From: Bilabrum cf. latius
Lineage: Eukaryota
Reading direction: 5' to 3'
DNA: 64,000 bases
Assembly: GCA_965178125.1 (NCBI GenBank)
Contig: OZ237744.1
Span: 186,001-250,000 of the forward strand
Every line of letters begins with the position of its first letter. Position 1 is the stretch's first letter. The notes beneath the pieces were generated by a model, which did not search any database, was not told the origin of the DNA, and saw nothing but the letters and a program-made list of their open reading frames with translations. The translations under genes and the position numbers were made by a program. This document shows, in pieces, positions 130-54,578 of the stretch.

Positions 130-1917
130 ATGTTCTCGCTCCCCGTCGCTCGTGTGTGTGCGTTCAGGCCAGGAGATCAAAAGTGGGGAAGTACCGGATG
201 GCTCGCGGGAGTTTCCAGCGTCGTATGGGCCATGACTTGCCTGCTAGGAATCGCAAACGCATCCTGCACCGGCTCCATCTATTAGTATCGCATGGAACAT
301 GTCACGGTGTGTCCGATCCCTTCACCTTTTGATGCGGTGGGCCAGCCGTGCAACACTGGACATGGATGGACCCATCTGCAACTCGACGGCAAAAATTACT
401 GCACCAAGTCGCACTAGACCTTGAAGATCGGCAAGGATGAAAGCATTGGCGCCATGGTCGAGGATATCGAGTGCATGGTCGACGGGCCCAACGACCAGGC
501 GGCTTTCGCGCCTCGGTACTACACTCGACTTCAGGCCGAACTACAGCGAGAAGCAGAGTTGAAGGCAAGCACACCCGCTGCACGCTCTGGCGCTGCCTCA
601 TCAGGTTCGGGTGAAGGCGGGGAGGGCGGCGCAGCCAAAGCGGGTGGTGCTGCCAGCGCGAACCCGATGTGCGATCGCGGAGATCCGGAGGAGCCCACCT
701 ACAGCGGAGACGAGGCACTCGTGTACTCGTGGAAAGAGATCGAGGGCAGCCCTAGAAACCGCCAGGCAGTGGACCAGCTGGCGATTGGAGGCATGTCGCA
801 GCGGGCCCTGTCCATCGGCACGTACTCTGTGAACTCGCTCAACCGAGCCCTGCCGGGAACACCGGTACCTCACGTGTTTGACGTGTCCAAGTTGCCGCGA
901 GACGGTCCTGGAGACGAAGGAAGTGGAGATGATGGCAGTCATGCTGCTAGAGACTGCTTCGTGGCAGCTGCGGCCATCTACCCTCTGTCCGTGCGTGTGT
1001 TCCTGCCTCGCGAGGGCAAGTGCTCGCGAGGGGCCAAGGACATGAGGCACGTGGAATCGACGTACCATGCTGTAGCTCTTTGGGGGCAAGATGGAGAAGC
1101 GTCGGGCGGGGCATCGGGTGGCGCTGCATCTGGCAGAGAGAAGGTGCGGCTCAGCCTGGGACATGCTGCGCGCATAAAGGATTGCATGGAGACAGATGTC
1201 GACTGGCAGGATCTCGGCTCTGCGCTCATCAAGATGGGCCGCAAACCGGATCGCGCGAGAGCTGGGATCCCGTTCAGTGCAGTGGATGTAGGCGCTTCGC
1301 AAGCAGGCATGCACGAGCAGTTCGGGCTTGACCCAGCAGTCGATGAAAACCCGGCCCTGCTCAATGAAGCGGCAGTGGCCATCTAGACGGTAGTGGCGTA
1401 GTGCTTGAAGATCTCGGGGTGCTCAGGGTCCGGCGATGCAGATGGTGAAGGCAAACACAAGTCATCCATGTGCTTCTTCGATGTGGATCTAAAGGGGCTG
1501 CTTGAGTAGCCCGTGTGCACCTCCCCCGTGGCGATGTTCCCCATTGCTCGGGACAAGGGAGGGGCTAGTCAGTGCTTGGCGGCAACCAGGCCTGCAGCAG
1601 ATGCAGATGCAGATGCAGGTACAGGTGCAGGTGCAGGTGCAGGTGCAGGTGCAGGTGCAGGTGCAGGTGCAGGTGCAGGTGCAGGTGCAGGTGCAGGTGC
1701 AGGTGCAGGTGCAGGTGCAGGTGCAGGGATGTCCGAATCGAAGGTGGGGGGTCTGGGAGACTCGTCAGAACAAGCGGGGCATGGTGCTGCTACTGGTGGT
1801 GATGGCACACCTGCAAGCAGCGCGTTTCGGGGGCAGCAGTAGCCAGGGCGCCGCAACCCATTGCGGAGGAATCGCCGCCGAGACGGTGGATCAAGTGGCT
1901 CTAAGGCTGGGAAATGA
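130..1917 (+). CDS. Hypothetical protein, possibly secreted, with a (Gly-Ala)n tract
   Basis: One frame from ATG 130 (alternative ATG 232) to TGA 1915-1917 joins ORFs 421..1386 and 1513..1842. Its only interruptions are TAGs at 283, 415, 1384, 1399, 1507 and 1840. Hydrophobic N-terminal stretch; no recognisable domain. Confidence 0.6.
1615..1727 (+). repeat. (GCAGGT)n hexanucleotide microsatellite, about 18 units, encoding (AG)n
   Basis: Directly visible tandem repeat inside the first CDS. Confidence 0.95.
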
Positions 1918-2103
1918 TGAGACCAACAGACTGTGCCTTGCTTCCAACTTGTGCCAACGTATTCCGACTGTGCATGAAGGACCCGGAGACAAACGGCCAA
2001 ACTTGCATCGAGGGCCTGATTGGGGCACCACAATTAAAGTTTGAAAAGTGCACCGAGCCGATCCCCGGATCTGTATAGAAAACTATTCTGAGCAGTGTCT
2101 CCT

Positions 2104-5759: not shown

Positions 5760-8700
5760 TCACGCCCTTGTCCGCCTGCCCCCCCTTGCCCCTGCACCGA
5801 CCCTGCTCTTGCCCTTGCCCTTAGAACGCGATCTTCCAGACGAAGGAGACTTCGTAGACTTGGAAGGGGAGGAGGCCTGCGTCCTCCTGCGCTTCGCCGG
5901 GGCAGCTTCCTCCTCATCTTCCTCCTCTTCTTCCTGCCCCTCGTCGCTGTCGCTGCCGCTGCCGCCCGCATCGTCGTCCTCATCCACAGCACCGAGCCCA
6001 CCAGCGATCCGAAGCCCAGCCTCCTCGTCTTCGTCCTCCTCGTTTCTTTCTTTCCCTCCCGCCCCATCGAAAGCCTCCCCCTCGATTGCCAGCTGTGCCT
6101 CCGTGGCGCGAGACCGCTGCCGCGCCCGGGCCACCGACCCCGCGCTCAGGGCGCCAGCGTTCACACCGGCCTACCTGGCGCGTGCAGTGCTGGGGGGTCG
6201 CACCGACGGCGACATTCGTCCCGTAGAAGGAGGCAGGGCCTTGCGAAGGCCGCTCATGCCGTGCCCCTTAGCGGGGGTCTGCGGCACAGTGGCCTCTGCG
6301 GCTGCCGCCCGTGCGACGCTTGCCGAGCCCTGGCTTGCTGCTGCTGCGGCTGCAGCCGGTAGCCTGGGCTTGCCCCTGAACGTGCCAGGCGCCGGCCCGA
6401 ACTTGTCGAGGTCCAGCGTGGCGGATCCAGATGACTGCCTCTGCGAGTCGTGGTAGATGCCCACCAGCCCGTCTGCCTTCCCGTAGAAGCTGTCCTTGAG
6501 CGAAATGACGATGCACTGCAGCGGGACGCCCCTTCGAGGGTGCGACCTCTGCTGGATGTAGTGGCACACCTTGTGCACGTTCACGTTGTCCAGTGCCGCA
6601 TCCACCTCGTCCAGCACGAAGAAAGGGGAGGGGTGGTAGTGGTGGATGGCGAACAGGAGGGCAAGGGCTGCCACGGTCTTCTCTCCACCGGACAGCTGCT
6701 CCATGTCGCGGAAGTGCTTCCCGGGCGGAGACACGTTGTACCGGATGCCACCTCCTGCGAAGGGGTCCTCTTCGTTCCAGAGGTGCAGGCTCGCCTGCCC
6801 GCCGTGCACGTGCTTGGATGACCGCGTCAGCGCCTTGTACACCGAGTCGATCTTGCTGCGGACCGCGCTGTACGCGTCCATGAAGAGCTTCAGCCTGCGC
6901 TTGCGCACGCGCTCGAATGCCTTGGCCACCTGCTCCGCCTGCCCTTGCTTGGTCCTCGTTTCTGCCCTCTGCGTGCTGAGGCGCTTGGTCACGTCCTCGA
7001 GCTGATCGCCGGCCTTCATGTTGGGCGCAGAGGCCTGGATCTTGAGCCGCAGGACGCGGACCTGCTCCTGCAGCGACCTTGCCATGCTGTCTACCGCTCG
7101 CGAGTTCAGGTCAGACGCACGAGCCTTGGCGAGGAGCTCCGGCATCATCTTGTCGAAGTCGATCCGGGACGCGCGGTCCGCGTCCCGTCGCACGACAGAG
7201 GTGCTTCCCCTCGCGAATCGAGCAGAGGACAGCCGGGAGCTGCTGGCGCGCGTGCCGCTTGTGCCCGTCTCAATGCCCTCGTCGTCCATGGAAGCAGAGG
7301 CGGCCTGGCTCCCGCCCCGGCCCTTGGAGCCCTTCCGGCTCCTGCCCTCGTCCTCGTCCTCGTCCGCCTCATCGTCATCATCATCGTCCTCATCGCCCTC
7401 ATCGTCCTCTTTGAGAGGCACGACCACCTGGTCCAGCTCGAGCTGCGTGAGCAGGTCGTGCCTCTGAGCCCGCCCCTTCTGGAGCTGTGCCTCGGCGCCG
7501 TGGTGCGCCTTGGCAGCTTCCGCGCGCCTGCGGCCGGCCAGTGCCCTCCTCTCCCTGGTGCGGCGGACCTTGTCCTCCTGCCCCTGCACCTCCTCGCGGG
7601 CGGTGTCCACGGCCTGGCGGCGCTTAAGGAGCAGCTCTTCGGCGGCGTCCGCGGCTGCCTTGGCCTTGTCTGCGGCTGTGCCTGCTTTGCTCGCGGCCTT
7701 GTCGGCCTGCTCAGCTGCCTGAAGAGCTGCATCCCTGCGCTTCTCCAGGTCAGTGCACCTGTCAGCATCGCACTCCTCCTTCTCCTACAGCCTCTGCACG
7801 TGCTCCTGCCTCTCCTTGCTCCTCTTCTCGCTCGCCTCGTGTCTCTTGAGGACCGTGTCCTCGTAGTCGCGGATGCTGCCCAGCCCCAGTCGCTTGCATA
7901 GCGGCTCAAACACGCCAGATTCCATGCCCTCCACTTCCTCGGCCAGAGCGTCGATCTGCTCCTGCTGCTCCTGGGACTCTGCCTGGGCGGCTGCCAGCTT
8001 GGGCCGCACGTCGGCGAGCATCTTACGGACCTCACCAGCCTCGGCCTGCTTGGCGGCCCGCTGTGACGTCACTCGCTCCGCGTCGGCCTTGATGGTAGTG
8101 CGGCGGGCTTCGAGCGTCTGCAGCTGCGCGCGGATGCGAGCGGCCTCCCGCAGCGCCGTGCCGTCCATCGCGCCGGCGCCCGCATCGTCTCCACCGGCGG
8201 CGGCAGCGCCACCCTCGCCGCCCTCGTCCCCCGCTGCAGCAGACCCGCTGCCCAGCCCGAGGCGCCTCCTCAGCACGGCCTCCTCGCGCAGCAGCTCGTC
8301 CCTCCTCTTGCGCAGCCCCGCCAGCTCTTTCTCACTCACCCTCCTGCGCGAGCCAGCCCTGTCCAGCGCGCTGGCGCCGCCCGTCATGTTCCCGTTCTTG
8401 GCGATGACGACTCCGTCGAGGGTCACGAACTTGGTCTCCTTGCCCTTCTTGAAGCGCTGCTCCGCGGCGTCTTCCAGCGTGTTGGCCACGATGATGTTGC
8501 CGCAGACATAGTCCAGCGCGGGCGCGAAGCGGCTGTCGGCGCGCATGACGTCCCGAAGCCGCCTGAAGGCAGACCCGAGGTGGTCGAATGCAGAGTCTCT
8601 TGGCTTGGGGCGGAGGTCTGCCATGGGCAAAAAGAGGCAGGGCTTCACCCTCCTCTCTCGCAGGAACTCGATGCAGCGAGCCGCTGCCCCCGAGGTCTCC

Positions 8701-10968
8701 ACCACGATGGCGTCGCCGTACCGGCCCATGCCCACGTCCATGGCAGTCGTGTACCTCCCGTTGGTAGGCTCCACGAGGTCCACCAGCCTCCCGTGCACGT
8801 CAGGGAACAGCCTCTGCAGCTCGGCGATGGCCTCGGCCACTCTGCGGCCCGCCTCGCTCTCCTGCCGGTGGCTGGAAGCCTCCTCCAGCCTCTCCCGCAC
8901 GGTCAGCAGCTCGCCCGCCATGGCAGACTGCCGCGCCCTCCCCTCGTCCACCTCGCCCTGCACCTCGACCAGCTTGGCGGTCGAGCGCGCGGCCTCCTCC
9001 CCCAGCTTCTTCTCGGCAGCGAGGAGCTTCTCCAGCGTGGCACCATGCTTGCCTGCCTCCGCCTCGAGCACTTCCAGCTTCTGCGCGAGCGTCTGCTCCT
9101 CCTGCTTTAGGTCCTCCAGCCGGCGGGTCGACTGCTCCTGCTGCCTCCTGAGGCTGTCCAGCTCTGTTCTCTGCGTGCCGGTGAGCTGCCTTGCCTCTGC
9201 CTTCCTCTCCCTGTACTCGGCCAGGTCCTTCTTTCCCAGCTTCATCACTTTCTTGCCGGGGGACCCAGCGGCGCCAGATCCCTTGCTCTTGCGACGGGCG
9301 CCAGCCGCCTCCTCCTCCTCCTCGTCCTCCTCCTTCTGGGCCTGCTGCAGCTCCTCGATGTCGGATCGCAGCTTCTCCAGCGCTTGGGTCAGCTCCTTGA
9401 GCTCCTTGTCGGCCTTGGCAGCCGCCTCTCGCTCCCTCTTTGCCTTGGCTAGGGCAGAGCGCTGCGCCGCAGACCTCTCTTCCCGGATGCCCTCGGCCGT
9501 GCGGTAGGCCTTCTCCTACTTTGCGAGTGCCTGCTGCTGCTTGCTCATTGCCTGCTTGGCCAGCTTGTGCTCTTGGTTGGCCTGCTTGAGTGCAGTGCCC
9601 GCTTCTTCTTCCTCCTCCTGGCAGCCCTGGAGCTTCTCCGCCTCTCCCGTGGCAACCTACCTCTGCGCCTCGATGGTCTGCTCCACGTGGTGCAGCCGCC
9701 AGAGGGCCAGCTGTGTCTTGAGCTCCGACTGCGGCGGGTAGGGGGAGCAAATGAACGGGAAGCGGGGCATGGGGTGCGTATGAGGGTGCGGGGGGGGGGA
9801 GGTGGCGGTAATGCACGTCGAAAGCAGCACAGACCCGGGGGCAGGGAGCGTGGGCGTGGGTGGCTCGCAAGGGGAGCTGGGAGGCAGCTGGCGGCGGGGG
9901 TCGGACGGAATTGCCGGCCCCGTCAGCGTTAAGTGTCCGATTATTTGGTGCTATGGATCGATGGATCGCATGCCCCCCCCTCCCTCCCGGTGCTCGCTCG
10001 CGATCGCTTGCTGTCAGGCCTCACCTCGTCGTCCACGAGCTTCTGGTAGGCGTCTGCCTCGGCCTTCTGGTCCTGCACCGTCTTCTGCTCGGCGCGAAGA
10101 CTTCTTGCGCGCTAATTGGCGTACATAGCCTCGTCTCTCTTGCGCTGGAGCTCCTGCTCGAGCCGGTCGTAGCGGTCAGCAAGCGAGTGCGATCCGCTGA
10201 CCTGTTCGAAATGCGCCATCAGGCGCTCCGGAGACTGGCTCGCAATGCTCTCCACGTCTCCCTGAAAGACAAGGAAGTTTTTTGCCCGGGCGATGAGACC
10301 AATCTTCCTGAGGCGGGTGTGGTACTCCTTCTCGGAGACAGCCGTGCCGCCAAACCTGTACTGGGATGCTCCCGCCACTACCGATCGCCGCAACTCCAAT
10401 TCATCTCCGGCATCATATCCTTCAATTTCATCGTGAGGTCCTACGGTGTACATCAGGCGGACATCGGCTCTTCGCTGCGGTGGAGCTGGGCCGTCGCCGG
10501 CGTATACCAGGTCCTGCAGACGAGTTCCTCTCAAATCCCTGGTTGCCACTCCAAGCACGAAGCAAATCGCATCCATTAGATTACTCTTGCCTGCGATAAA
10601 CGATTGGTACCATATTCAGAGCAGTTCGTGGCCTTGCGCGGTGGTCAGTGGGTATCGCCCACGGAGCTGCCATCGGTGGGCGATGAGATACAAAGTGCTC
10701 TGCTCGCGATATTGCACTCCTTGCCTCCCACCAGACCACAGTTCAAGTATATTTCTCTAGGAATCAAGACAATGCGGCCTAAACGGATCGGTTGAGACGA
10801 AAATGACGACCGCCGGCGTTCCTGAGGCAGATGCTCACCAGATCCATTGGGCCCAATCACTGCCGTAAAGTCCTTGAAAGGACCAATTGTCATCCTTCCC
10901 CCATAGCTTTTGAAATTTTCTAGGATGATACGGTCAATACGCCCAGCGACGGGCGCAGAGGCTGCCAT
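5760..10968 (-). CDS. SMC1: Structural maintenance of chromosomes protein 1 (cohesin subunit)
   Basis: N-terminal LENFKSY and Walker [21 protein letters not shown], split by intron 10591..10838. Second intron 9729..10024. Hinge VHGRLVDL...VTLDG...GNMTGG. C-terminal [18 protein letters not shown] and [12 protein letters not shown]. In-frame TAGs at 10112, 9657, 9516, 7785 and 6171; TGA at 5760. Confidence 0.95.
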
Positions 10969-16627: not shown

Positions 16628-19600
16628 TCAAACCTCCCTCCACAACCGGCACCTGGCCTCGTACAGGCTGCACCGCGCCTCCCTATCCCATCGCAGGCTG
16701 CTGCGCACCAAGTCAGTGAACCAACCAGGGTAAGACTCATCGCCGCCACCGCTGCCTGTCGCGGCCCCAGCACCAGAAGCTGCACCCGCTCCAGCCGCCG
16801 AGCCGCTCCACGCGAGAGCTATCCCATCATCGCCGTAGTCTGGCACGTCCACCTGTGATGTGCGGCCTGGCAGGCTCTCGTACGTCCCCAGCGGGTGCTT
16901 GCCCCCTGTCGCGAGCTCATGCAGCAGCACGCCCAGCGCGAACACCGCCTGCTTTCCGAACGGAATCGTGTGCGTGGTCAGCGCGCGACGCCGGGCTGCG
17001 GCAGACGTCCCTGCCCTCGTCATGTGCGTGCCCTCTGCCCAGCTGTTCCTGACTTCGGGCGCCAGGTGCATCATGTTGCCCCCCGGCACCTTCAGCTCCA
17101 TCCACATGGTGCCATCGAGAGCTTCCCTGACCTCCACCGAGCGGGCCGGCTCAGATGTGGGAGCAGCAGCTCCACTGGCTGCCGCTGATGCTTTGGCTGC
17201 TTCGGCCAGAGGATGGTCGCATGTCTCAGTGGTGGGATCCACCGCGCCAGTGAACGAACATCCCAGGTCGATCAGCACAAAGCGAAGCATCTCAATGTTT
17301 CCATCGCGTGTCTCGGCGCTGGAGGATGCATCGCCTGCTCCTGCCAGCGCCTAATCCGCGGCTTGAAGCACCTTGCTGTCTTCCACCATTACATTGTCCA
17401 TCTTGATGTCCCGGTGCACCACGCCGTGCCAGTGCAGGTGCCACAGGCCCTCCGCGATCTGCCTCGCCGCCTGCAGCATCAGTGGCCACGGCAGCAGCCT
17501 CTGCGGAAAGCACGCGCGCCACTGCTCGAGCGTCTGCGGGAGCCACTCCACGGCCATGAAGAGAGCTGGCAGCCGACGCGTGCCCGCCCCAGCACCAGCA
17601 GGCACCTCGCCGGCTGCCCCGCCAGAAGCTGACCCAGAGCTCCGGCCCGCCTCGCGCTCGAAGTCGAGATAGCACTGCTCCCACACCCAGTCTGGTGGAG
17701 TGGCCTGCACCATGCCGATGAGCTTGACCAGGTTCTCATGCTCGGGCACGGCTCGCAGGGCGGCGTGCTCCGACTCGTACCTTGCCCTGTTCGAGTTGGA
17801 CGACTGGCCCCAGTTGGACAGCAGCTTCACAGCCACGCACGCGCGCAGTGATGCATCGGGGGAGGAGTCTGGAACTGGTGCACCTGTCATCGTGCACATG
17901 CACACGCTGCCGAACTGCCCTCGACCCATGAGCCAGTCGGGGCGTGCAGCAGCAGGTGCTGCATCTGCTGTAGGCGCTGGTGTAGTTGCCGTGGCATCAT
18001 CACGAGCGCAAGAGCCGTACAAGTAATTGATAACATCTCGGAGCGCTTTGGCTTCCTTTTCGGCAGGACTCAAGCCGCGGAGAATGGCGGCTCCTGCGTC
18101 GCCTCTCACGACCTATAGGCCGCTGTCTGCCTCGCCTATGGCCTCCTTCAGCTGCGCCTGCATGGCACGCAATTTCGGGTGGAGTTGGGCTGGACTGACC
18201 ATGCCTCGCACCAAACCATGCCGCGTTCGGGCAGCTGTGACAAGCACAGCTGTATGTTCTGCTTTGGCGTCTTGTTCACGCGCTTGCTTGAGAGCTGCTT
18301 GGGACTCCTCTAGCTGCTTCGTGGCATCATCCAATCGCTCCTGTAACGATTGAAGCTGCGCTGCTTGCTGTCTCGAATCTAAGGAGTGCTGCAATTCAAG
18401 GCTTGCGACCTGACCCCTAAGCACCTCACTCTGCTCCTGAATCTCGAGACCCTTGGCTACTGCAACGCCCTTTTTCTTAGTCTCTGCAGCAAGCTTGGCA
18501 CTGGTACTCTAGAGCTCTGACTTGGTGGCATCAAGCTCCTCTTTACTGCTGCTGAGCTCTTTTTTGGTTTTCTCCAGCTGTTCCTCCAGCGACTGCGATA
18601 CGGCCTTCTGCAGATCAAGCTCCTGGCGCAGCCGGTCAATCTCACCAGAGTTCACAGCTACGGGGGCCGGTGGTTGCGGCGGAGAGACTGGCAGCGGTAC
18701 ACCTGCTGATGCGCCACCACTGGCTGCGTCCTTCATCACACCAGGAACGCATTCGCACAATGGTCGGAACCCAGCCGGCGGCCTGTGCTTGAACTGTGCA
18801 GTTGAGGAACCTGTCAGGAAGCGCCCGCTGCCCCGTGCTCCCGAAAACATCGCAAACAGGGGCGACCCACCGCCTCTGGCCACCTGCTTGATGCGCTCCT
18901 CGTCGCTGAAGGCAGTCCCGTTCGGCGAGGAAAAATCACCGTTCCAGCCCGCTCTGATCTCGCCCTTCTCCATGTCCACGCACAGGCAGATCACGCCGCT
19001 TGCTTTGTTGAGGCCAAACCCTCCTTGGCTTCCGCGGTGCCACTTGAGCTGTCTATCGTAGTCCACAGCCCAGCTGTTGCCATCATCACCGATACCATTA
19101 CCACCGGTGCAATTAACTGGTAGAACGCCGAAGCCCACCTGGCCTGCACGCAGGTACACTTCCATGTCAAGCTCGTAGTACCACTTGCCTCTGAGCATCG
19201 GGTGCTGCGGCAGGAAGGCAGAGCACCAAGATGATACCTTCACTGTGCCATCAGATGACGCCGACATCGGCTGGGCGCTACCCGGTAGCGCAATCGGCTT
19301 GTCGACCTTGCACACTCGGAGGTCCTTCATTGCCCCTGTGCGGTACGTGTTGGAGCTGCCGTCCAGCCAGATGACCGACACAGTGCCGCTTCGAATTTCC
19401 TTTTCAATGTACCCGATCCCTCCCTTGTCCTGCATCTCCCATTTCCAGTCAGGCCCGCGGGAGACGGGCAGGCCAAGACGCACGAGCTCTGCTGTGACTG
19501 GCTCGCCCGTCGCCTTCGAGGTGGCCTTGCCGCCTGCAGCTGCAACTCCGGTCTCGCCGGCGATGTATAGATCGTAGCAATCGTCTGCCCCGATTCTGTA

Positions 19601-37300: not shown

Positions 37301-37619
37301 CGTGGATCGCTTGAGTGAGATACGCATGTACGGTGGGGTTGCGGTGTGTGAGGCTGCCGGGTTGCCGCGGCTGCGAGCATCCCGTGCAGCCATTCTGAAG
37401 CGCACCGCGGCGCAGGCGGAGCAGCGAAAGGCCTAGATTCGGACGCAGGAAGAGCTAGAGGCGAAGAGGCGCAAGATGATCCTCAGCGGGCTGTCACACA
37501 GGGCCGAGAAAGCCGGTATCCCTAAGTCTGCGCTGGCGGTGCCAGCTACACCGCTCGCTGGACCTAGCGAGCCTGACCCGGCGCTCATGCCTAGCGTCGG
37601 TCGGGCAAAGCGAACGTGA
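34365..37619 (+). CDS. Ankyrin-repeat-containing protein
   Basis: One 3.25-kb frame joins six listed ORFs through about 12 TAGs, with no TAA/TGA until TGA 37617. Ankyrin-like segments AARSGSVAALQALLDVG and GCTVLMAGAASGNIGVLHLLLSIG...DGATAADWA. Confidence 0.7.
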
Positions 37620-37766
37620 GGGGCAGCACGGGAGGGTTGCGGTCTCCGAGTCGAAACCCGGAACTCAAGTCCATTGTGTGGATACAAATTATTCTGGTAT
37701 TCTGGTGGATCCAAAATCTGTTTTGGCGGTTCAGTGCAACCATCTTCAAGAATTTCCCGAAATTGC

Positions 37767-38789: not shown

Positions 38790-41700
38790 TCACAGACCTA
38801 GCGCGCCTGACTTGGGCTCAACCGCGCTACTGGGGCTACCACTAGTACTGCCCTCCTGCGATGGCTTGCCCGAACCAGCACCACTACCTGCAGCCGCCGC
38901 AGCAGCTGCGACCGCAGCTGCAGCGGCTGTAGGGCGCGGCCCATTAGCGGCACTTCTGCTCTTTGCCCCCTTTCCATACTACCCTTTGCCTGTTCCCTCA
39001 CCCTGCTCGATGGGCGACCCATGCTGCGAACCGCGCGCAGACGCGGTGCCAAAGGCAGACAAGATGGATCCCTGGTTCGAGGACATGACTGACCCGTGAT
39101 GGGGAGCACCTGAAGGGGAGGAAGACGATTTTTTCCTATTCTTCCTCTTCGGAGCCTTCGAGCTAGAGCTCTTGGCAACGGCAGCACCGCCCGCAGCACC
39201 GCTCCCAGCCGACGATGACGACGAGGAGGATGATGCAGCGCGCTGCCCGCTGCTTGATGTGCTCTTGGAGTCTTGCGAAGCAGCTGCCGACCCTGGCCGA
39301 ATTACCTCGCCAGAAATTCCCTTCGGCTTCAGCCTGCCAATGCTGAAGGCGCCTCCACCGCCGTGCAGCATGGCTACTTCTTTGGCAAGCTGCAGGATCT
39401 TCTCCTGCCCCGCGTGTATGGCCGGCAGTAGCGCCATCCGCCTTGCGTCCCTCTTTCTGCCACCGTCGCCGGCCACGGCGAGGACCTGTCTGAGCGCCCC
39501 CTGCAGCACCCTAAGTATCGTCATTGCATCGTCCAGCACGTCACCCAGCCTACTCGTCAGTACCCCTCGCAGCCTCACTAGGGCGGCCATGACGGGCTTT
39601 GCAGACCTCAGCACGGAAAGCAGAACTGCCTTTGACCTGGCAGCGCCCCTAATCTGCCGCGTAAGCATGACTGACTGCGCCCACAGATCAGCGGCTCGCC
39701 TTGCGCTACCCATGGCGCGCTTGAGGCTATCTCCCGCGCTGCTGTGTGCGGACTTGCCGGCCGCGACGAACTAGCTCGTCAGGGCGTCAATCACAGCCTT
39801 GTACGCGTGATCAAATGTAGAACTATCCAACGACCGCCACTCCAAGCCATGCAACTCGCCATCGTCCTCGTCTTCGCTGGCAGATCCAGGCCGGCGCTTG
39901 ACGTCACCAGCGATGGCAGAGTGCGCCGCAACCGGCGCCAGGCCATGCTGCAGGAGTGATTCACAGGTGGCGAGAGGATCGCTGGACTGTGTGATGCACT
40001 GGGTCACCATGCGTCGTACGGTTTTCCCCTGCCCCGCGGTGGAGCGCAGTGGGGACTGCAAGACAGCCTTGAGGGCCGAAGCCAGCTGTGAGGGCACCTA
40101 TCTGAGAAGCCTCTAGTCTTGCTTGCCTCGCTGTCGCAGCGCTTCCTGCATGACCTGGCTGCTATCCATGGAGGCTTGCACGCCCTCTCCTTGCTGCTAG
40201 TCCAGCCTAGAACCCGCCGTTGCTGCCAACCGCCTTGCGAAATGGATGCAGTCAGACGCGACCGCAGCCGCATCAGCCATATCGGCTAGCCCATGAATCA
40301 GCGGCATGGTGTCACAGACCTGCTCGAATAGCTACAGGACAACGCGGACACAGCCGAGCTGTGCCCTGCTGCTCCACGAAGACATCGGATGCGAGCCAGC
40401 CTGCTTTCCGCTGGGGCTCCCTCTTGCTGCCGCCTCTGCTGCCGCCATTGCTGCTGCAGCCCGGCGGAAGCTGTTGCTCTGTCTCTTCGGCGACGTAGCG
40501 CTGCCAGTGCCCTCTATCGGTTGAGTTGCCTCAACCCACTCCTGCAGGAACGCCACAGCGGCTGCGGCCCTGACTGCGTCATTGCTTCGAATCGCGGCTC
40601 GGACAACAACGTGCAGTCCTGACAGGACGTGCCTCCTGAGCGTTTCTCTGGTTTCATCGTCCCTGCACACAGCAGCAGCAGGCCAGGAACTCTTCCTTGG
40701 ATCGCCACCATCTCTTGCTGCTTTCCAAGCGGCAATCGACTCGTTGAAGGATGCCGCGAACACTCGTAGCAGAGGAGCCGCGCAAGAAACTAAAAAGGAC
40801 TCAGGAGTGTGCCCATCATTCAGGATTGGCCTCGCAGTCCACGATTCTGACCCGGAGGATCCACCATCCGGCAACAGAGCGCCTTCAAAGTTGGCTCCAC
40901 CCTTGCCGTGCGTCAGTGGTGCATCGAACGGAGCCGCAGGTACCTGGGCCGTATTGGCAGCCGATCCTAGACGCGCTTCTAGCACCCGCTGCAAGCCCTT
41001 CGCTAGTTGCACGCACAGAGGCAGCGACGGTCGCAATGCCATCGAACTGATGCTGCGAGTCCTCCTGCGACTCCTGTCGCTGTGAAGCTCTGACAGCAGG
41101 CTCTCTTTAGCCCAGTCAGCGACACCGTTTACAACATGGGATGCAAGCGACTGCTATCCAAGACAATTGCTCTTGCTGCTGGCTGGACCGAGTGACGTCT
41201 CCTGGCTGCTCTGGCTATTTGCAGGACTGTCAGCTGGCTCAGACTCTGCCGGCCATCCGTGACCTGCATCGCACTCGTACGTTTTAGGGCCAGAGCCTTC
41301 GCCTGCTTTCGGTTCAGTGCCGTCAGCGGCTTCTTTCTCTGCCTGGTCCCACGCCCATCGCAGCCTAGCGACGTGCCTGTCTAAAGCTGTGCGAGATTGG
41401 TTCGCTCGAAGCAGGGCGGCGGCAGTGTGGGGCTAGAACGGCAGCAGCCTGGACTCGAGGAGCTCCCACTGTCCCACGCATGCCTTCTGCAGCTTTCGTA
41501 TGCTAGCATTTGACAGGGGTCGCGGGGTTGCTTGCGTATGGGTCGAGGAGCCCGCAGCCGCGCCGCTCGCCGTGGATGGGCTGTGCTCTCCCGCGCGGCG
41601 AAGCGCTGCGCCCCTTATCTGCTGCAGGGCTGCTGCGATGGGCCTGTCATCATCTAGGTCCTCACCTTGGATCAGGTGTTCTAGCTTCGCATCTGTTGTA

Positions 41701-44700
41701 GCGCTTGCATTTAGATCGATTGCCGCGTCATCTCCGCCGTCTTCGTCCTCGTCTTCGTCCTCGTCATCCCCGTCACCCGTGCCTTCCTTTTCGTTCATGC
41801 GAGGCTAGTGGTCGCCATCGGTGCCCGACTTATTAGACTTGCCACCGCTCTGCCTCAGAAGATCCTTGATGGAACGGGCCTTCTTCCCCTTGCTTCCCTC
41901 TGCGGCTGATCCTTTGCCGGCAGCCTTCGCACCCCTGGCTCTCTTCTTGCCGGCATCACGAGCCGCTGCACTGCCCGCATGCTCACCCATGCATTTGCTT
42001 ACTACCGGAATCAACCCGACGAGCGACGCGGCTCGAATGCAGACGTCGTGGGGGCGATGACTGGTTGAACTTGGCAGGCTTGAAGTGGCTGCGCCCGGCT
42101 CTCGCAGCGGTCTGAGCACCCGAACGGCAGGTACGGCCGGAATGCGTAGCGACAGATGCAATTCGGGCCCAGCGGCTTTGCTTGCCCCGTGTGGTACTGC
42201 GCCACCAACCTCCTTCTTCGAATCTCTTACGTTGCCGCGGTCAGCACCATCCTCGTCGTCCTCCATCATGGCCTACAAAGCAGCAGGTTTCGACTCGCTG
42301 GACGCGATCTTCACTGCCTGGGCCAGGTTCAGATGGAGCTGCGACCGAGCTGAAGCCAGATCGTAGATGCAGTTGCCCATGCTCTCGGGTGGGGGCAGCG
42401 CGGAATCAACGCGGTGGGCAACAAAATGCGGAGCAGCAGCGTAGGCACCTTGTCCACTGGACCCAAGAGACGATCCAATATGGTGCCACTCGCCGAGAGC
42501 ATGCAGCAGCGGAGCAAAGGCAGCGAGCTGGAGCATGGTCTCGAGCTCTGCGCAATCTACGAACCGCTGCAAGAGCGTGTCGTCTTCACCATCCAGGCCG
42601 ACGGCTCCATCGCTCGGACTGTAGATCCCGGTGAGGTACTGCAGCGTGGATCGAACGAAATTGATCCTGCAAACCAGTCTGGACACAGCATCAACTGCCG
42701 ATGCCTCGCAGCTGCACAGCGCCGCCACGAACTAGCCTCTAGAAAAGCCAGACGGCGTGAAGCATGACTCCATAGCGATTGCAGCCCTTGGAACGTCGTC
42801 CAGACCCTCGCAATAGTTCTGCTGCAGGTGGAGCAAAGTTCGAAGCGTGGGAAGCAGCAGAGTCTGTCTCTGCATGGATGGATGCAATGCTGCCAGGGAT
42901 ATAGAGCTAGGCACGCCATCCTTTGCCATCTCCACCATGGCGTCGCAGTTCGGCAAGATGCTTTGAACCCCGAAGAACGACACGTCTTCGTTGAGGTTTC
43001 GCCACAGCTTTGGCCTGAAAGCATCGCTGCAGCGCTTCGTGAGTCCATTGAACAGCCGGTCGACCCCGCTGCTGGTATCATTCGAGCTTGTGCAGATGAA
43101 ATTCGACACGAAGAATGCGTGGATGACTTGCCTCACCGCTCGTCGAATTCCAGGGCACAGCTGACACGCCCCGACGTCCTCCTGACACAGGCTGGTCCTC
43201 ATCATGCCAGCATCGGCACTGCTCTTCGAAGGGCCCTGCTGTGACATTGGCAGCCTGTCCGGTTCAAGCCGGCTCTGGTATGCTACCCTGGTCTGCAGTT
43301 GGGCCTCCAGGCCGTAGCTGTCAGGCAGCTCGAGCGGTAGCACGGGCGGGCGGAACGGAAGCCTGAAACTTGCGGACTTGCCCCTGGCTGGCGAGCCGGG
43401 GCCCATACTGGCCGACGCTTCAGCGCTTGGAGACTCCGTTTCGCGAGCTGCCGACTGCGACCCAGGCTGGGCTTGCGGAAGGAGCTCTTTGTCCCAGCCG
43501 CTAGCAGCCTCGAGCATTTTCTGCCGGATGCTCGTCAGGTCGCTGGCCGCGGAGCCTCTCTGCGCCAGGCATTCACCACCGAGGCACAGCCGAATCTCTT
43601 CCAGCAGCAGAGACAGCGCTGCAGTGTCACGCTTGAGGGCGTCCATGGCGTGTAGCAGTAGCTCGGTGCACCGGCGGACTGCACCGGAGGGAATGGGGTG
43701 TGCCATCCAGCCTCTCAACCTGCCCGCTGCAAACGATTCAGAGCTTCCATTCGATCCGGCAGATTGCGACAACGAAGAAGCAGTGCTTGGCAGGCTGCCC
43801 CCTTGTCCAGATGCGCAGGCGGCAATGGAGCCAGTGGCACCGCCTGTGGCCACCGGCATGAAAGCTGCAGACCACCAGCGCAGCGCAGCAACGACGCCAA
43901 TGGCGGCGACTCGCCTGTAGTGCTCGGTTGGGTTGGCCAGCTGTTTCTTGATGAGGATGAAGAGTTCGTCAGACTGTTCCTCTGCCCTGACGCAGTCCTC
44001 ATCGGATGGTCCACCTGTGGATTGCTCGTCGGGATCTCCGGCTGCAGAAGCAGCACCTGCTCCGCCAGTGGAGCTCGATCGGATTGGATTGCAGCCGAAC
44101 GCTGCGTCGTAGAGCGCACGCACCTGCCCCACCCCGAGTGGTGCCGTGTAGTCGAAGGCGCCGATCAGCTGATCCCTATGTCTGGCCACCCTGGCTCTCA
44201 TCGCATCGACAAGGGCCTGACCGCCTTGACCAAACCTTGCGTTGGCACCGCTTGTCGCCGTGCCGATCGTGGACCACGCTAGCGTCCGCACGGCTGACTC
44301 GCGCACAGCCTCGTGATCGTCTGCCAAGTGGCACACGGCCGAGTCGATCACGCTGCTGGTGACCGAAACGTCCTGGCACGCAAGCAGCAGGTGCTAGCGA
44401 AGCGCGGTTCCAGTTCTGACCGCAGTCTGGCTCTTCATTTGCAGCAGCGACCCACCCAGCTCCTGCAGCACTCCCTGCACCTCCGCCACCGCGACCGGAA
44501 ACCCTGCCAAGCAGCCGGGTCCAGCTAGCCCTCCCGCCAGACAGCGCTTACCATGCGTAGACAGAAGCTGATCGAAGACAGGATCGCGTCCCTTGGACCC
44601 AATGCTGCTAACGCCCTGCGTAGGCAATGCGGCAGACAGCGCCAGCCACACTGCAGCCTGACAGTGCGGACTGCCTCTCGGCGATGCTGGCAGGCGACTC

Positions 44701-45983
44701 CCTTGCTGGGCATGCTGCAACGGCAAGCACAACACGTTTGCAATGGCTGAAGACTCCGCAACAGCGGCGCGCATGCTGCGCACGAACGAAGCTAGCTGTG
44801 CGTCAAGCTGGTGCCGAACGTAGAGCAGGGGTTCGGCGTCCTGCTACTGCTCACCACTGTCTGCCATGCGGGAATCTTCCGGTGCCGGGCTGCCTGCTGC
44901 TTGAGATGATGATCTAGAGCTGACGCCGCCCCCTTGCTCGTCGTGATGCCCTTTATTGGCTCTATTCGCGCCAGCCTAGGCTTGCTGCATGCCGCTCACC
45001 ATGTCTGCAAGGGCGCCCGCAACTGCCGAGATGGCCTACTCGGCAGTTGGCATTCGCCTGCGTCCAGCGGCCTTTCCCCGCCCGTGCCTTGCGATCCTAG
45101 TCCTTCTCTTGAAAACCTATCCTCCCTCTTGTTCACTGTCTTCCTCCTCGTCTTCGTCTTCATCGTCCTCAGCTCCGCGCGCTGCTGCAGACTAGGCACC
45201 GCCAATTCCGTCGTCACTGTCCTCGTCAGAGTACACTTCCACGTCTGAATCGTCGCGCATTCCAGCACTAGAGTGCGCTTCGCCACAGTGGGCAAGCAGG
45301 AAGTGCGTGGCCGGGCCTAACGTACCCAAAGAAAGGGAGCTGAGGCGGGCTAGCACTTCCGAGACGAAGCCCCGCATGTGGGGCGATTCTGGACCGCCAA
45401 ACCGAGATGCAGCCTCTAGGACCAACTTTACCTGGACTGCATCACCCGTGCTACTTGAAAACTACGTCTAAAGCTCCTCAAGTACGGTATCCTCCTCGTC
45501 TGACATGCGAGCTACGAAACCGAGCAAGTCTGGAAGATTCTCGAGCACAGCTTCTCGCAAGGCGAGGCTCTACTCTGTTTTCGACAAAGATAGTACCTAC
45601 CGTACCATCAGTGATTTCTGTGCGACAAATGGTATCCACCTGATGCCTTGGAGCAGGTGGGCAGCTCTCGAAGCCTCGCCAATCCTGTCGAGAGACTTAC
45701 ATGCTTGCACGACGGCCTCAATAACGACAGAGTTCGAAGAGGGGCACGATAACAGCAGGCGAATCGTTGGATGCAATGATCCGCTAGCTGAGGTGAAGGC
45801 TTGTATGGCCTCGGCGCGGACAAGAGCTTGCTGCAGCAGTTGCTTTAGTCGAGCAAGCTACGCTGGGTGTCGAATGCTGGCCGATAGCATGGATGCAGCC
45901 TTTTGAACCTGGCGAGGGTCGACCTGAATACTATCTAGAAATGCATGGAGCTGCCCAAACGGGCTGCCTGGACTTGTATCCAT
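38790..45983 (-). CDS. FANCD2: Fanconi anemia group D2 protein homolog, about 2400 aa
   Basis: One 7.2-kb frame with about 22 TAGs and no TAA/TGA. FILIKKQLANPTEHYRRVAAIG matches the FANCD2 monoubiquitination region (human VIRKQLSS). Also FDYTAPLGVGQVRALY and C-terminal AFSIGRLKPKGISGEVI. TGA at 38790. Confidence 0.8.
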
Positions 45984-49711: not shown

Positions 49712-50686
49712 TCAAGGACGCGGCAGCGCACCAACAGCGCTGCAGTCGATCAGCTCGTCTGGCACCCCGTACGCAGCCGCAGCCGAGCGGCAGAGCAACT
49801 GCTCCCTCTGCTCCTTCGTGGCCCCACGCAAGAGCAACTGCTCCACCGCGGCGCTCCATTGTACGTACGTGCCCGCAAGGTCGAGGAAGAACCAGTTGCC
49901 CGCGAAAAAGGACCTATCGTACCCGAAGATGTCAACGGTTTCCCGAACGAACGGTGCGACTTGCTCCACGGTCCAGTTGCCGTACACTCCGCCAGCAGCT
50001 TCTCCGGGTGCCCCAGATATCTTCACGTATGTGTTGTGTCGCTTCGCGAGCAGCTCCATTCCGGCCTTCCATTCGGCGTATTCCGGCGAAGCTGTGCCAA
50101 GATGGATCGCTGGGCCGCCGAGGTGGTCGAGTATCATTGTCGTGTCCGGGCATTTCTAGCCCAGTGCAGCGACTTCTTTTAGAACCGAAGGATTTGACAG
50201 CATGTCAAAGGACAAATTACGTGCACCCAGCTCGCAGAATCCGCGAACAAAGTCACCGTTGCCTAGCATTGAGCTTGCGCTGCCTTCCCGGATGCCACGG
50301 AAAAGAGGAGACGCTGCTTGCATCAAGTCTAGCTGGCGAGAAAGATTCTTATATTCCAGTGCAGCGTGCCCAACGATGGCACCAATCTGGGTTTTGGCTG
50401 GATCTTTGTGCTGCGTCTCAGAGACCTGTTGAACCCACCGCACCTCGTCAAGCCAAAAAGAGGGCTTTGCCGACACCTCAATGAATATGGCAACGGATGG
50501 GTGAATAGCAGCTTTCGACGACACATCCGTCAAATTGCCCAGCGAGTACGAATGGTTCAGTTGCGGAAGCTTGGCTTGCCAAGTGTACTGCAACTGCTAC
50601 AAATTCGTGATATGGACATGCCCATCAATGACGCTGCTCCGTGCTAGGGGGACCAGAAGCGAAATCAGTGCTACTAGGCAGTGCAT
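49712..50686 (-). CDS. Amidohydrolase-2 family protein (L-fuconolactonase-like) with a signal peptide
   Basis: VIDGHVH metal motif, FRGIR, LSFD, ILDHLGGP, NTYVKISG and FGYDRSFFAGNW. TAGs at 50597 and 50156; ends in TGA. Confidence 0.85.
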
Positions 50687-50747
50687 CAGTCTTAGAATTT
50701 GCTTAATGCCAAACAGGACGCACAGCTACTCGATCCGGGATCCGGAT

Positions 50748-53299
50748 CCGTCTATCCGGAATCTGTCCACACCGGGACATCTGTCCACACATTTCTCTCG
50801 GCCCTTCCTGCCCCCATGTCGGGGGCAGCGGCAAGTGGAAGCAGCGAATCTGATAGTAAAACTTCACATCTATCAGAATCTCTGTACTAGCGGCTTAAGG
50901 ACGATGTTCGTGCCGTCGGTTTTCTGCTTGCAAAAGGGGACGGCAGGGTCCCGGAGGAAAGCGCCCACACACGCTGGCTGCTAACACCTGTGAAGGTGTG
51001 GCAGCTTCACCTATACCTTGAAAAACATAAAGCAAGGTTCAGGCCGCGGAAGAAGAAGCAAGCATGGTCACAAGCCGCTGCAATGACCGAGGGCGTCGCA
51101 TCTGGGAACATCGGGTACAAGACGGTTGCGGCCGCCTAGAAGGCGTGGCGGCGCGAGATGATGCTACAGGAGCAGCCCTAGAAGCGGAAACTGAAGTCGT
51201 GTCTACCTGAGCGCCTTGAATTAGCGCTGGCGGAGCTAGTTCGGAGCAGAGCGAGGGAAAACATGCCGATGACCGATGACCAGGTGTTGCACTTTGCTAC
51301 CTGTCTCCGTCGAACGTACTTGCCCAAGCGCCTGAGGAAGGGCAGGCGCCCCAACAAAGAGTGGGTAAATGACTACATGAAGCGTAGAGAGCTGCATTCG
51401 TTGACTCCGGAGGACAAATCCATCGATAGGAGCGCAGCGGAGTCCGCCCACGTCCTGATCAACTGGTTCATCGCCTTCGCTTCCATCCTCGGTATGTCGA
51501 TTGACAAGTCCACCGGGAAGGCCATTGGTGAGCTGAAGAAGTATCATCCTAGTATGATTGCCAATGCGGATGAGACTGTCGTTTTAGTCGAATCCCCGCC
51601 TGGCTAGAACAAGTTTCGTGACCTCAAGGTGGTCGTCGACTCGAGCGACGACAGGGCCACCCTTCGCCGTTCGCGGTTCGCCAAGACCAACGTGGCCTAC
51701 ATCCCTTTCGTCACTGTAGACGGATTGGTAGCTGATGTAGTTATCTTCAAGTATGACGGCAAGGGAACGCACGATGAAGGATTTCGCTTGGAGAACGACC
51801 GGTTGAAGTAGATGCTCAAGGACCTGCCGAAGGAGCCCACCGACGAGCAGGTGCAGAAGGTGCTTGACTGCCAGGCCGTGGCACAGCGGGTGGCTTACCC
51901 GAGCCCCACGCAGCTTCTATTCGTGACAGACGTCCCTGAGGAGTTCAAGGAGGTCGTAACGACCAAGCGCACGAGCCTTGTCGCCACTCCCACGGGGTAC
52001 AGCAACGCCACCACCTTCGGCGGGGGGGTGCGCCTGCTGGCCGACCACTTCGATACCGTGCGCACAAAGGAGAAACTAGGCAAGGATGCAAGGGGTCTAC
52101 TGATCGTAGACGGGCATACAACCCACCATACGGCAGCACTGAAGGCGCTGTGTGCGTAGAGGAACATCGACCTGGTCTTCCTCCCCCCCAACACCACCCA
52201 CTTCATGCAGCCCCTGGACGTCGCATGCATGGCGTCCTTCAAGCGCGTGTTCGCCGCCGACAAGCCGTACTTTGGCGAGTTTATTGCAAGCCGGTACCGT
52301 ATTGAGGAGTAGAAGGCCAAGACCATATCGACGAAGGAGCACTTGAAAGCAGCCGGGCTGGCGAAGAACTACGGGGAGGAGTACATCCTGCCGATGCTGA
52401 TGTCGGCGTCCAGGCAGGCGTTCACAGCCAAGAACGCAACCAGTGGGTTCAGGAAGTGCGGCTTGCTTCCACTTGACCCGGTCTCGGTGATGAAGGGGCT
52501 CAAGATGAAGGATGAAGTGATCAAGGCGGCGCTAGCTGGGTTGGTGGAGGAGGGGGGGGAGGGGGCTGCCAGTGGGGCGGGTGCTGACGACCTCGAGCCC
52601 GGGGGTGCCATCGCTCTGGTGTGCATCATGTTGGGGATTGACAAGCCCCCTCCTTTGTGGCGAGATGCGCCAGCGCATGCAACGTGCACCCTTGAGTAGG
52701 TTACGGATGCTTTGGTGAAGTATGGGGAGAGGCTGAATGCGGACCAGGCCCGTGACATGCTTGTGGATCGGCGGCCTGGCATGGCCGGTACTGTTGATAT
52801 GATCGCCTTGCACATCGCCAAGGTGAGAGAGAGTGGTGACAGGGCCGAGCTAGCTGAGAAGGGTACTAGGAAGCCTCGGACAAAGACGCAGCTCTCGCGC
52901 AGGCTGGCTGGTGTGGGAGGGACGGCAGAAGAGGCTCGGGCGGCGACGCTTGAGGCTGCTTCGAACAAGCGGAAGAGGGCGGAGGAGGGGGGAGCTGGGG
53001 GGAGGAAGAAGCGGCCCAAGTCGCCCAAGAAGAAACGTAGGGTGGAGAAAGGCAAGAAGGGTCAAGAACGTGCGGGTGGAGGAGGAGAGCGTGCGAAGGC
53101 GGAAGCCATGCCCTCGGCAGCTCCTGGGGGGCGGACGCGATCACGAAAGAATGTGAAGAAGCCAAGCAGATATAATTAAGCCTATTTACTTTTCACTAGT
53201 GAAATATCAGCCTGTACGGTGCCATAGAGACGAAGATATCACCTGTCCAAAAAGTGTGGACACATTGCCGGAGTTGGACAGATTTCTAGGAATCCGCTG
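50748..53299 (+). mobile_element. pogo/Tc1-mariner superfamily DNA transposon with imperfect terminal inverted repeats
   Basis: Left end AATCTGTCCACACCGGGACATCTGTCCACAC (about 50760-50790) is an imperfect inverted copy of right-end GTGTGGACACATTGCCGGAGTTGGACAGATT (about 53254-53284). The right end is ...CTG|TA. No clean TA on the left, so the boundaries are approximate. Confidence 0.75.
50816..53179 (+). CDS. DDE_1 (pogo/CENP-B-like) transposase
   Basis: Catalytic motifs IANADET, LIVDGHTTH and FLPPNTTHFMQPLDV; SGFRKCGLLP; CENP-B-like HTH region (PNKEWVNDYMKR); basic C-terminus. TAGs at 50888, 51137, 51179, 51605, 51809, 52157, 52310 and 52697; ends in TAA. Confidence 0.9.
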
Positions 53300-53645
53300 T
53301 ACCCCGAACTCCCGCCGTCCATAGCTTATGAGCTAATCGTCACCATCGAGATGCAAAAGTATCGCTGGAAAGCGCTTCCGGAGCTCTATCGGCTGAAAAA
53401 GGATTCGCCAGCTGCGGGCGGTTCTGTGAGAAGGTTCGGCGGCTTGTAGTCCCGGTTTGGGGCGGATTTTCTGTGGACATTTCCCCGATCAACGGATCCG
53501 ATCTGCAGTAGGTGCAGCTTGAGATATCGAGGGAAGGCAACCAAAATACACGCGTGGTCGTTGCGATTCTGCAATTCATCATCACTTAGAGACTGCTGAC
53601 TCCGTATCGCATCGCATCAAGCCGACACCTGACACAGGCCGCTGA

Positions 53646-54578
53646 TCACCCATGACCATACCTGAGACTACCTTTAGCACCACCACCACCACCACCACCA
53701 CCACCACCACCGACAGGGACGTAGTGTCTCACCCAATCACACACCATGTACTGGGGAAACACCGTGTCATTGGCCGGCTTGCCCGGGAACCCTCCCCCCA
53801 CGGCCAGGTTCAGTATGAAGAACCAGTCGTGCTCCTCGTTCACCTTCTGGCTCCAGCCGTTCACGACCGCAACCTGATCGTCGTTCAAGTAGTAAATCAA
53901 CTGATCATGTTCCCTGTCAATATTCGCTCCGAACACGTGGTACGTCTCGTTGTACAGGTGCGTGGAGTTGGCGGGCAGCGGGGTCGAGTAGTTGCCCAGG
54001 GAAGCCTCCTGGGCATGCCCGCACGTCTTGCTGTCGTTCGCCCAATGTGCAGCCCAGTGCTACGTTTGTTCCCCATGCGCGCCGTGCACCTGGCCGTGGC
54101 GCTTTCCGCCGACGCTTTCCATGATGTCGATCTCGCCAGAAACCGGCCAGCAACTCCCGTTCTGCGGCATGAGCCAGATTGCCGGCCATAGACCTTGGGA
54201 AAGGCCGTGCGCTCCGACGTAGTACATGCAGCTGGCCTCGAATCGCCCTTCTCTGGCCCACCGTTTTGAGTTGCCGTCGATCCAGCCGCTCACGTACGGA
54301 TGGTTGCTGGACGTGTTTAGGTCTTTGGAGCGATCGGCCGTCAGTACTAGCGTTCCATCTTTGACGGACACCTGCTCTGGAATGTACCATTCCAGTTCTC
54401 GACTGCCATGCTCCCCTGTCTTGAGGTTCCAATTGCTCTCATTGATTTCGTTGCCGTTGAATTCGTCTTGGAAGTCGAGGTTCCATCTGCTGGGATCAAA
54501 CGGAGGAGCTGGCTAAGCTAGTGCTGCGAATGAGATCAATGTCAGTCCGACGAGCGAGGCCACGGCTTGCAGCTTCAT
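53646..54578 (-). CDS. Secreted GH16 beta-1,3-glucanase (laminarinase-like)
   Basis: Signal peptide MKLQAVASLVGLTLISFAALA. Motifs FQDEFNG, GLWPAIWLMP, catalytic WPVSGEIDIME, FILNLAVGG and FPQYMVCDWVR. Poly-Gly tail. TAGs at 54513 and 54060; ends in TGA. Confidence 0.9.

Follow-up and report, generated by a model that had tools for sequence, protein, structure and literature searches.

TAG as a sense codon, very probably for glutamine, in a GC-rich stretch of Bilabrum cf. latius nuclear DNA

The DNA considered here is a stretch of 64,000 nucleotides from Bilabrum cf. latius (contig OZ237744.1 of assembly GCA_965178125.1, positions 186,001 to 250,000 of the forward strand), referred to below as the window, and the question asked of it is what the codon TAG means. 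The window is eukaryotic nuclear DNA with a few introns and a GC content of 0.56-0.67 per 4 kb (about 60% overall). The longest open reading frame (ORF) spans 714 codons when all three standard stops are applied and 2,403 codons when TAG is left open, and long, tightly packed ORFs on both strands emerge only with TAG read-through. In total, 27 ORFs of 258 to 2,397 codons each tile the window, and 17 of the 27 gave a Pfam family match when scanned, among them NIF3, SMC, DNAAF5, protein kinase with SPRY, class-V aminotransferase, JmjC/cupin, ankyrin, AAA_28, HEAT, amidohydrolase, DDE_1 transposase, SKN1/KRE6-type GH16 and GH79, with SMC1 and GH79 each divided between two ORFs. Four ORFs, with lengths in amino acids (aa), carry most of the comparison described below:

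27496-28785 (+): PhnW-like aminotransferase ORF, 429 aa, ending in TGA, with TAGs at aa132 and aa397 (Pfam Aminotran_5)
28870-32238 (-): 1122-aa ORF ending in TGA, with 9 in-frame TAGs and no Pfam family
34365-37619 (+): ankyrin-repeat (Ank) ORF, 1084 aa, ending in TGA, with 12 in-frame TAGs (Pfam Ank_2, Ank_3, Ank_4)
38790-45983 (-): 2397-aa ORF ending in TGA, with 22 in-frame TAGs, no Pfam family, weakly FANCD2-like

The PhnW-like ORF matches 2-aminoethylphosphonate-pyruvate transaminases in the PDB with an E value of 3.6e-90. The sole PDB match of the 2397-aa ORF is to the C-terminus of FANCD2 and is weak (E 0.0096), so that the name FANCD2 should be taken as a weak label for this ORF.

Codons were counted in 25 long ORFs comprising 18,095 codons, 24 of these ORFs being complete. 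TAG occurs 110 times in frame, compared with 137 and 129 times in the other two frames, whereas neither TAA nor TGA occurs in frame at all; in the other two frames TAA is found 47 and 58 times and TGA 337 and 373 times. Clearly, TAG is a sense codon in this DNA, and an in-frame TAG is carried by 24 of the 27 tiling ORFs. The 24 complete ORFs are terminated by TGA in 20 cases and by TAA in four:

57203-57205 (-): TAA terminator, one of four; the remaining three terminate ORFs whose ends lie at 4449, 32492 and 53179

After each of these TAA terminators, 4 to 139 codons follow until the next in-frame TGA or TAA, and the sequence in between is not coding-like. Moreover, if TAA were also read as glutamine, about 39 in-frame TAA codons would be expected beside the 110 TAGs (given a CAA:CAG ratio of 169:476), and none is seen. 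Hence, TAA is a stop here, which excludes the far commoner code type in which both UAA and UAG (UAR) encode glutamine. The TAG codons themselves are not assembly errors, since the contigs of run X6, which comes from another study, show no differing letter over six pieces within 34.3-53.2 kb that span 15 TAG codons.

Glutamine as the encoded amino acid had been proposed in a first-pass annotation of this DNA; it is supported mainly by evidence which that annotation did not have, namely the residues found in a close relative. The relative is known from ORF fragments of Logan assemblies that were called under the standard code. Twelve fragments were used, and two weaker matches, P0132 and P0133 (39-40% identical), were excluded from the comparison. 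Across the twelve, the window is matched at 2,914 of 3,373 aligned non-TAG residues (86%), with 97% identity for P0001 (PhnW), 80% and 85% for P0121 and P0122 (ankyrin ORF), 86-89% for P0123-P0125 (2397-aa ORF) and 77-86% for P0126-P0131 (1122-aa ORF). Fourteen window TAGs are spanned by these fragments, and at seven further TAGs a fragment ends:

28684-28686 (+): TAG, PhnW aa397, Gln in the relative (P0001; 12 of 12 flanking residues identical)
35130-35132 (+): TAG, Ank aa256, Glu in the relative (11 of 12 flanks identical)
35172-35174 (+): TAG, Ank aa270, Gln in the relative (8 of 12)
35253-35255 (+): TAG, Ank aa297, Gln in the relative (11 of 12)
36591-36593 (+): TAG, Ank aa743, Lys in the relative (11 of 12)
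42732-42734 (-): TAG, 2397-aa ORF aa1084, Gln in the relative (P0123; 12 of 12)
42273-42275 (-): TAG, 2397-aa ORF aa1237, Gln in the relative (P0123; 9 of 12)
40332-40334 (-): TAG, 2397-aa ORF aa1884, Gln in the relative (P0125; 11 of 12)
39771-39773 (-): TAG, 2397-aa ORF aa2071, Gln in the relative (P0124; 12 of 12)
38979-38981 (-): TAG, 2397-aa ORF aa2335, Gln in the relative as the last residue of the fragment (4 of 6), which stops one codon on, opposite a window TAT
31027-31029 (-): TAG, 1122-aa ORF aa404, Gly in the relative; locally rearranged, window V-G-TAG-S against V-Q-G-H
31003-31005 (-): TAG, 1122-aa ORF aa412, Tyr in the relative (10 of 12)
30430-30432 (-): TAG, 1122-aa ORF aa603, Gln in the relative; gapped and less reliable (3 of 8)
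28930-28932 (-): TAG, 1122-aa ORF aa1103, Ser in the relative; divergent context (7 of 12)
35880-35882 (+): TAG, Ank aa506; P0121 ends just before it
37434-37436 (+): TAG, Ank aa1024; P0122 ends just before it; X6 record 8 (37113-37660) shows 0 differing letters
41805-41807 (-): TAG, 2397-aa ORF aa1393; P0123 ends just before it
40197-40199 (-): TAG, 2397-aa ORF aa1929 (TAG CAG CAA); P0125 ends just before it
30940-30942 (-): TAG, 1122-aa ORF aa433; P0126 ends just before it
30373-30375 (-): TAG, 1122-aa ORF aa622; P0129 ends just before it
29839-29841 (-): TAG, 1122-aa ORF aa800; P0128 ends just before it

The relative thus has Gln at nine of the 14 spanned sites and Glu, Lys, Gly, Tyr and Ser at one each; when only sites with nine or more identical flanking residues out of 12 are counted, Gln 6 and Glu, Lys, Gly and Tyr 1 each remain. 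As a control, the first six alignments (2,513 aligned sites) were evaluated at ordinary codons. Window CAG corresponds to Q 62, K 3, R 2 and E 2 and window CAA to Q 18 and R 3 in the relative (Q in 80 of 90 overall), whereas window GAG gives E in 78 of 91 and Q in none of the 91, and AAG gives K in 65 and Q in two of 74. The residues at TAG match the pattern at the window's own CAG and CAA codons. When the 14 sites were scored against such empirical profiles, glutamine reached a log-likelihood of -25.8, with histidine next best at -50.3. The change from TAG to CAG is a transition and possibly favoured by mutation alone, for which reason a model restricted to the single-nucleotide neighbours of TAG was scored as well, with kappa of 2 or 3 and omega of 0.1, 0.2 or 0.5. 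Under each of these six parameter combinations glutamine came out best, with a lead of 3.7 to 13.3 log units. Transitions and transversions were counted in the relative at 871:578.

The fragment ends tell of the relative's own code. Seven of the 12 fragments stop exactly one residue before a window TAG, and homology continues in the next fragment; of the other ends, two lie at a shared TGA gene end (P0001, P0131) and three opposite window CAG, TCG and TAT. Seven fragments breaking at window TAGs with homology beyond them argue that the relative shares the code, and a code common to both organisms would place the reassignment before their split. Window and relative differ at roughly one base in ten, and TAG and CAG/CAA have evidently, as judged from the aligned proteins, been exchanged repeatedly since the two separated. 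The syntenic relative is contained in the runs X8 and X11, with about 1,450 single-letter differences in X8 over a stretch of 18.9 kb. Among the 40 per-site differences listed, with 1,695 more beyond them, none falls at a TAG, and a metagenome scan with the relative's P0123 gave 107 pattern matches, none of which was confirmed.

Taken on this independent evidence, it is highly probable that TAG encodes glutamine, and the organism very probably uses a code of the NCBI table 15 kind, reading UAG as glutamine and keeping UGA, its main stop, and UAA for termination. In this code, TAG is an ordinary minor glutamine codon which exchanges freely with CAG and CAA between close relatives. The putative glutamine codons of the 25 ORFs comprise 110 TAG, 476 CAG and 169 CAA, giving TAG a share of about 15% (110/755). 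This share drops with the GC content at third codon positions (GC3; Spearman -0.50, p 0.011, 25 ORFs), which is the behaviour expected of a minor, non-preferred synonymous codon. Individual ORFs vary in this share between 0, in three ORFs with 1,138 codons, and about 0.3 (p 0.044 by chi-square over ORFs), and this uneven use may reflect avoidance in highly expressed genes.

Distant homologues are less discriminating. Eight columns were usable and were evaluated with a BLOSUM-based score, yielding Q 2.62, R 2.36, K 2.00, E 1.98 and N 1.32, compared with Y -3.75, L -4.29 and W -7.60. Leu, Tyr and Trp thus trail by more than 6 log units, in agreement with the first-pass annotation, which had argued against these three. 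It had added that Glu or Lys could not be excluded by eye, and its own evidence indeed leaves Gln unseparated from Glu and Lys, and from Arg as well. The tabulation of homologous residues at TAG columns which it had proposed as a check gave a polar residue with Q ranked first, barely. In the amidohydrolase, the column at aa30 holds D and that at aa177 Q and R. At the SMC1 N-terminal exon column, for which the first-pass annotation had given YQKK/YHRK, human SMC1A has H and fungal SMC1 has Q. The GH79 columns were compared with human heparanase only, which has N at aa101 and K at aa115, so that K is borne out among the K, H and R which the first-pass annotation had given for this gene.

All TAG sites named in the first-pass annotation are present in the window: CAG CAG TAG at 1834-1842, TAG CAG at 14210 and 50597-50599, and on the minus strand CAG TAG CAG (TAG at 44844-44846) and TAG CAG CAA (TAG at 40197-40199). 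'RL-TAG-EKEE' and 'LAK-TAG-EKA' were found in SMC1, 'NGAYG-TAG-RM' in PhnW and 'L-TAG-RIIG' in GH79, and 'ALA' followed by TAG and 'PAPP' is located at 54513-54515. 'YAN-TAG-RAR' is also present, but in the separate SMC1 N-terminal exon ORF 9944-10576 (-). What did not hold is the argument drawn from runs of glutamine codons, since a CAG or CAA neighbour occurs at only 8 of 110 TAGs (7.3%), which is not above chance; the corresponding rate is 9.3% for glutamine codons and 4.6%-9.4% over the 20 amino acids. Two of the named sites are as follows:

1840-1842 (+): TAG of the CAG CAG TAG example in ORF 130-1917; no homologue evidence at the site
54513-54515 (-): TAG directly after the signal-peptide-like 'ALA' of the GH16/SKN1-like ORF (53646-54650); putative cleavage site and candidate Gln/pyroglutamate position

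Several observations weigh against glutamine or against parts of this reading. The distant homologues, as far as alignment columns can tell, suggest a polar residue rather than Leu, Tyr or Trp without singling out Gln, and individual columns point elsewhere. At PhnW aa132, for which the first-pass annotation had named a variable polar site (Q, E, K or A), 119 homologues show E55/R18/L16/D10/K6/V5/A3/H3/S1/I1, so that E, K and A occur and Q does not, while the column at PhnW aa397 reads R103/Q12/E2/A1/K1. At GH16 aa197, four bacterial laminarinases have I/V/V/L, in a gapped stretch. The relative itself has a residue other than Gln (E, K, G, Y or S) at five of the 14 spanned sites, and it is a single relative known from gene-caller proteins alone, in which the codons and the kind of stop at fragment ends are unseen. 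Furthermore, the ORFs were delimited by TAA and TGA, which makes the absence of TAA in frame partly circular. Some of the ORFs probably begin or end in intron sequence or 5' read-through, for instance over aa 1 to about 85 of the SMC1 ORF, so that the count of 110 includes a few non-coding TAGs. Finally, neither a tRNA (ARAGORN) nor any Rfam match was found within the window, and eRF1 is not encoded in it.

That the TAGs are not translated at all, being sequencing errors, pseudogene lesions, intron content or sites of mRNA editing to CAG, is scarcely credible. A few do lie in probable non-exon parts, such as aa7 of the SMC1 ORF and the tail of the first GH79 ORF (60562-60564), but 110 in-frame TAGs stand against no TAA and no TGA, 15 are letter-identical in another study's contigs, and the relative's ORFs cross 14 of the sites with high flank identity and stop at seven more with homology beyond. 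As for editing, we know of no precedent for U-to-C conversion at more than 100 nuclear sites. A dual meaning, with TAG encoding glutamine inside genes and terminating in some contexts as in Condylostoma or karyorelict ciliates, is unlikely. It would fit the TAGs found within the last four codons of two of the 24 complete ORFs, against an expectation of about 0.6 at 6.1 TAG per 1000 codons:

54836-56875 (ORF): near-terminal TAG at aa676 of 679
59600-60376 (ORF): near-terminal TAG at aa256 of 258

Likewise, the relative stops one codon past the TAG at aa2335 of the 2397-aa ORF, and the remaining 62 window codons are of low complexity. However, two cases against 0.6 expected are not significant, the stop near aa2335 may itself be a sense TAG in the relative, and every one of the 24 complete ORFs has TGA or TAA at its end, so that no ORF needs TAG as its terminator.

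A different polar amino acid (Glu, Lys or Arg), with the Gln of the relative arising from the easy T-to-C transition of TAG to CAG, is very improbable. UAG or UAR codes for Glu exist in other protists (PMC10553269, PMC12153298), one TAG site is occupied by E and one by K in the relative, R, K and E score near Q over the distant columns, and the commonest residue in PhnW homologues is E at aa132 and R at aa397. Yet glutamine beats Glu and Lys by 3.7 log units even at kappa 3 and omega 0.5, and its lead grows to between 7.7 and 13.3 log units when omega is 0.1-0.2; Glu and Lys are further opposed by the scarcity of Q opposite window GAG and AAG, and Arg, which lies more than one nucleotide step from TAG, occurs at none of the 14 sites. 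Where glutamine is accepted, it might alternatively be inserted by a normal tRNA-Gln (CUG or UUG) in near-cognate reading, after eRF1 has lost recognition of UAG. The window itself lends this no support, but a structurally altered cognate tRNA reads UGA in trypanosomatids and ciliates (PMC13092985). We consider it distinctly unlikely, since TAG makes up about 15% of the glutamine codons, which calls for efficient decoding, and since the unread UAA fits a CUA anticodon and argues against a UUA/UUG-type reader (PMC5304391).

Under the glutamine code with UAA kept as stop, UAG would be decoded by a tRNA-Gln of its own, whose CUA anticodon pairs with UAG and not with UAA. As in other UAG-only reassignments, eRF1 would no longer recognise UAG, and glutaminyl-tRNA synthetase would probably be adapted. 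That CUA is the only anticodon reading UAG but not UAA has been argued for Iotanema and the rhizarian exLh (PMC5304391), and Tetrahymena, Condylostoma and Spironucleus have been documented to possess a tRNA-Gln(CUA) (PMC5304391).

UAG and UAA nearly always have the same meaning, and nuclear codes splitting them are described in a handful of lineages (PMC5304391, PMC11687900). Reassignment of UAG alone to glutamine is reported for the fornicate Iotanema spirale, the ciliate Protocruzia tuzeti and two phyllopharyngean ciliate lineages (PMC11687900, PMC5304391). These cases, as far as described there, resemble the window in that UAG is glutamine with UAA kept as stop. The window differs from them in being about 60% GC and gene-dense, with TGA as main stop (20 of 24). 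To our knowledge, ciliates and Iotanema do not have genomes of this GC-rich, gene-dense, TGA-main type. The UAR-to-glutamine codes of the table 6 type, found in many ciliates, ulvophycean green algae, hexamitin diplomonads, Streblomastix and Amoeboaphelidium protococcarum (PMC11687900, PMC6299283), share the change from stop to glutamine, but UAA is also glutamine there and a stop here. UAG alone encodes Leu in the rhizarian exLh and some ciliates, Ser in Scotinosphaera and Glu in an uncultured ciliate (PMC11687900); in these codes as described, UAG is uncoupled from UAA as in the window, whereas the relative shows L at 0, S at 1, E at 1 and Q at 9 of the 14 sites. The Leu code of the exLh type was considered and rejected, given the absence of Leu in the relative and its score over the distant columns, with the single GH16 column of I/V/V/L on its side. 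Recoding of TAG to glutamine is also known as 'genetic code 15' from crAss-like and other gut phages (PMC9523058), with the same codon and the same meaning; in the phages it is a late-gene strategy with suppressor tRNAs in a standard-code host, whereas the window belongs to a cellular eukaryote with TAG throughout its housekeeping genes. The literature consulted holds no GC-rich non-ciliate case of UAG-only reassignment to glutamine beyond those named, although supplementary lists may add lineages.

Hence, the code change is of a rare, already known kind, and the window probably represents a further lineage with the code 15 type. That this is an independent, undescribed UAG-to-glutamine reassignment in a GC-rich, gene-dense, non-ciliate lineage, common to at least two species-level relatives, is quite possible and is put forward tentatively; if true, it would be one of very few non-ciliate uncouplings of UAG and UAA. 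As a GC-rich case with TGA as main stop, it is of interest for genetic-code evolution, providing an extra data point on UAG captured alone, and would offer a system for studying the predicted tRNA-Gln(CUA) and the changes in glutaminyl-tRNA synthetase and eRF1. It is also important for annotation, since gene calling under the standard code shatters genes, as seen in the relative's orthologues, which are public only as fragments; table 15 is needed for this genome and its relatives.

The two divided genes of the window lie on the minus strand:

5760-9971 (-): main SMC1 ORF
9944-10576 (-): SMC1 N-terminal head exon ORF
60157-61404 and 59600-60376 (-): overlapping ORFs in different frames of a GH79 (heparanase-like) gene

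The main SMC1 ORF shows no similarity to SMC proteins over codons 1 to about 85, and an intron near 9.7-10.0 kb is therefore implied. In GH79, the first ORF has a tail that looks non-coding, which points to an intron or frameshift near 60.4-60.6 kb. Further features of the window are repeats, a mobile element and a TAG-free ORF:

16631-22152 (-): three tandem paralogues with a common N-terminal MIB_HERC2/SPRY module
50552-53179 (+): intact 875-codon DDE_1 (pogo/Tigger-like) transposase ORF with 11 in-frame TAGs, ending in TAA
22714-23301 and 25901-26497: direct repeat of about 600 bp, 94.7% identical, flanking ORF 23953-25893
1597-1727 (+): 6-bp periodic repeat giving about 20 Ala-Gly dipeptides within ORF 130-1917
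57203-58678 (-): 491-aa ORF with the window's highest GC3 (0.87), no TAG, a TAA stop and no Pfam family

The MIB_HERC2/SPRY paralogues form a repeat unit of about 1.2 kb with 88-90% DNA identity between copies, the first being fused to a coiled coil and a protein-kinase domain. Both short SPRY copies carry one TAG at the same codon and, sharing it, yield no comparison of TAG with a sense codon. The 11 in-frame TAGs of the transposase ORF indicate a mobile element written in the host's variant code. This ORF overlaps the 5' end of the opposite-strand amidohydrolase ORF (49712-50686), and runs X8 and X11 give little or no cover over 50706-52598 within it, which is not evidence of absence. A search of the PDB returned no match for the AAA_28, DDE transposase and JmjC ORFs. 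A 15-base match around a TAG, common to PhnW (27889) and the ORF at 62310, was judged to be chance, a few such matches being expected in 64 kb. Among Protein Atlas clusters, those nearest to NIF3 are Ascomycota-rich, which, like the SKN1/KRE6-type GH16, is a weak hint only as to the lineage, and those nearest to ORF 57203-58678 are bacterial hypothetical proteins (0.94-0.96) and ATP-grasp/TTL-like families (0.92).

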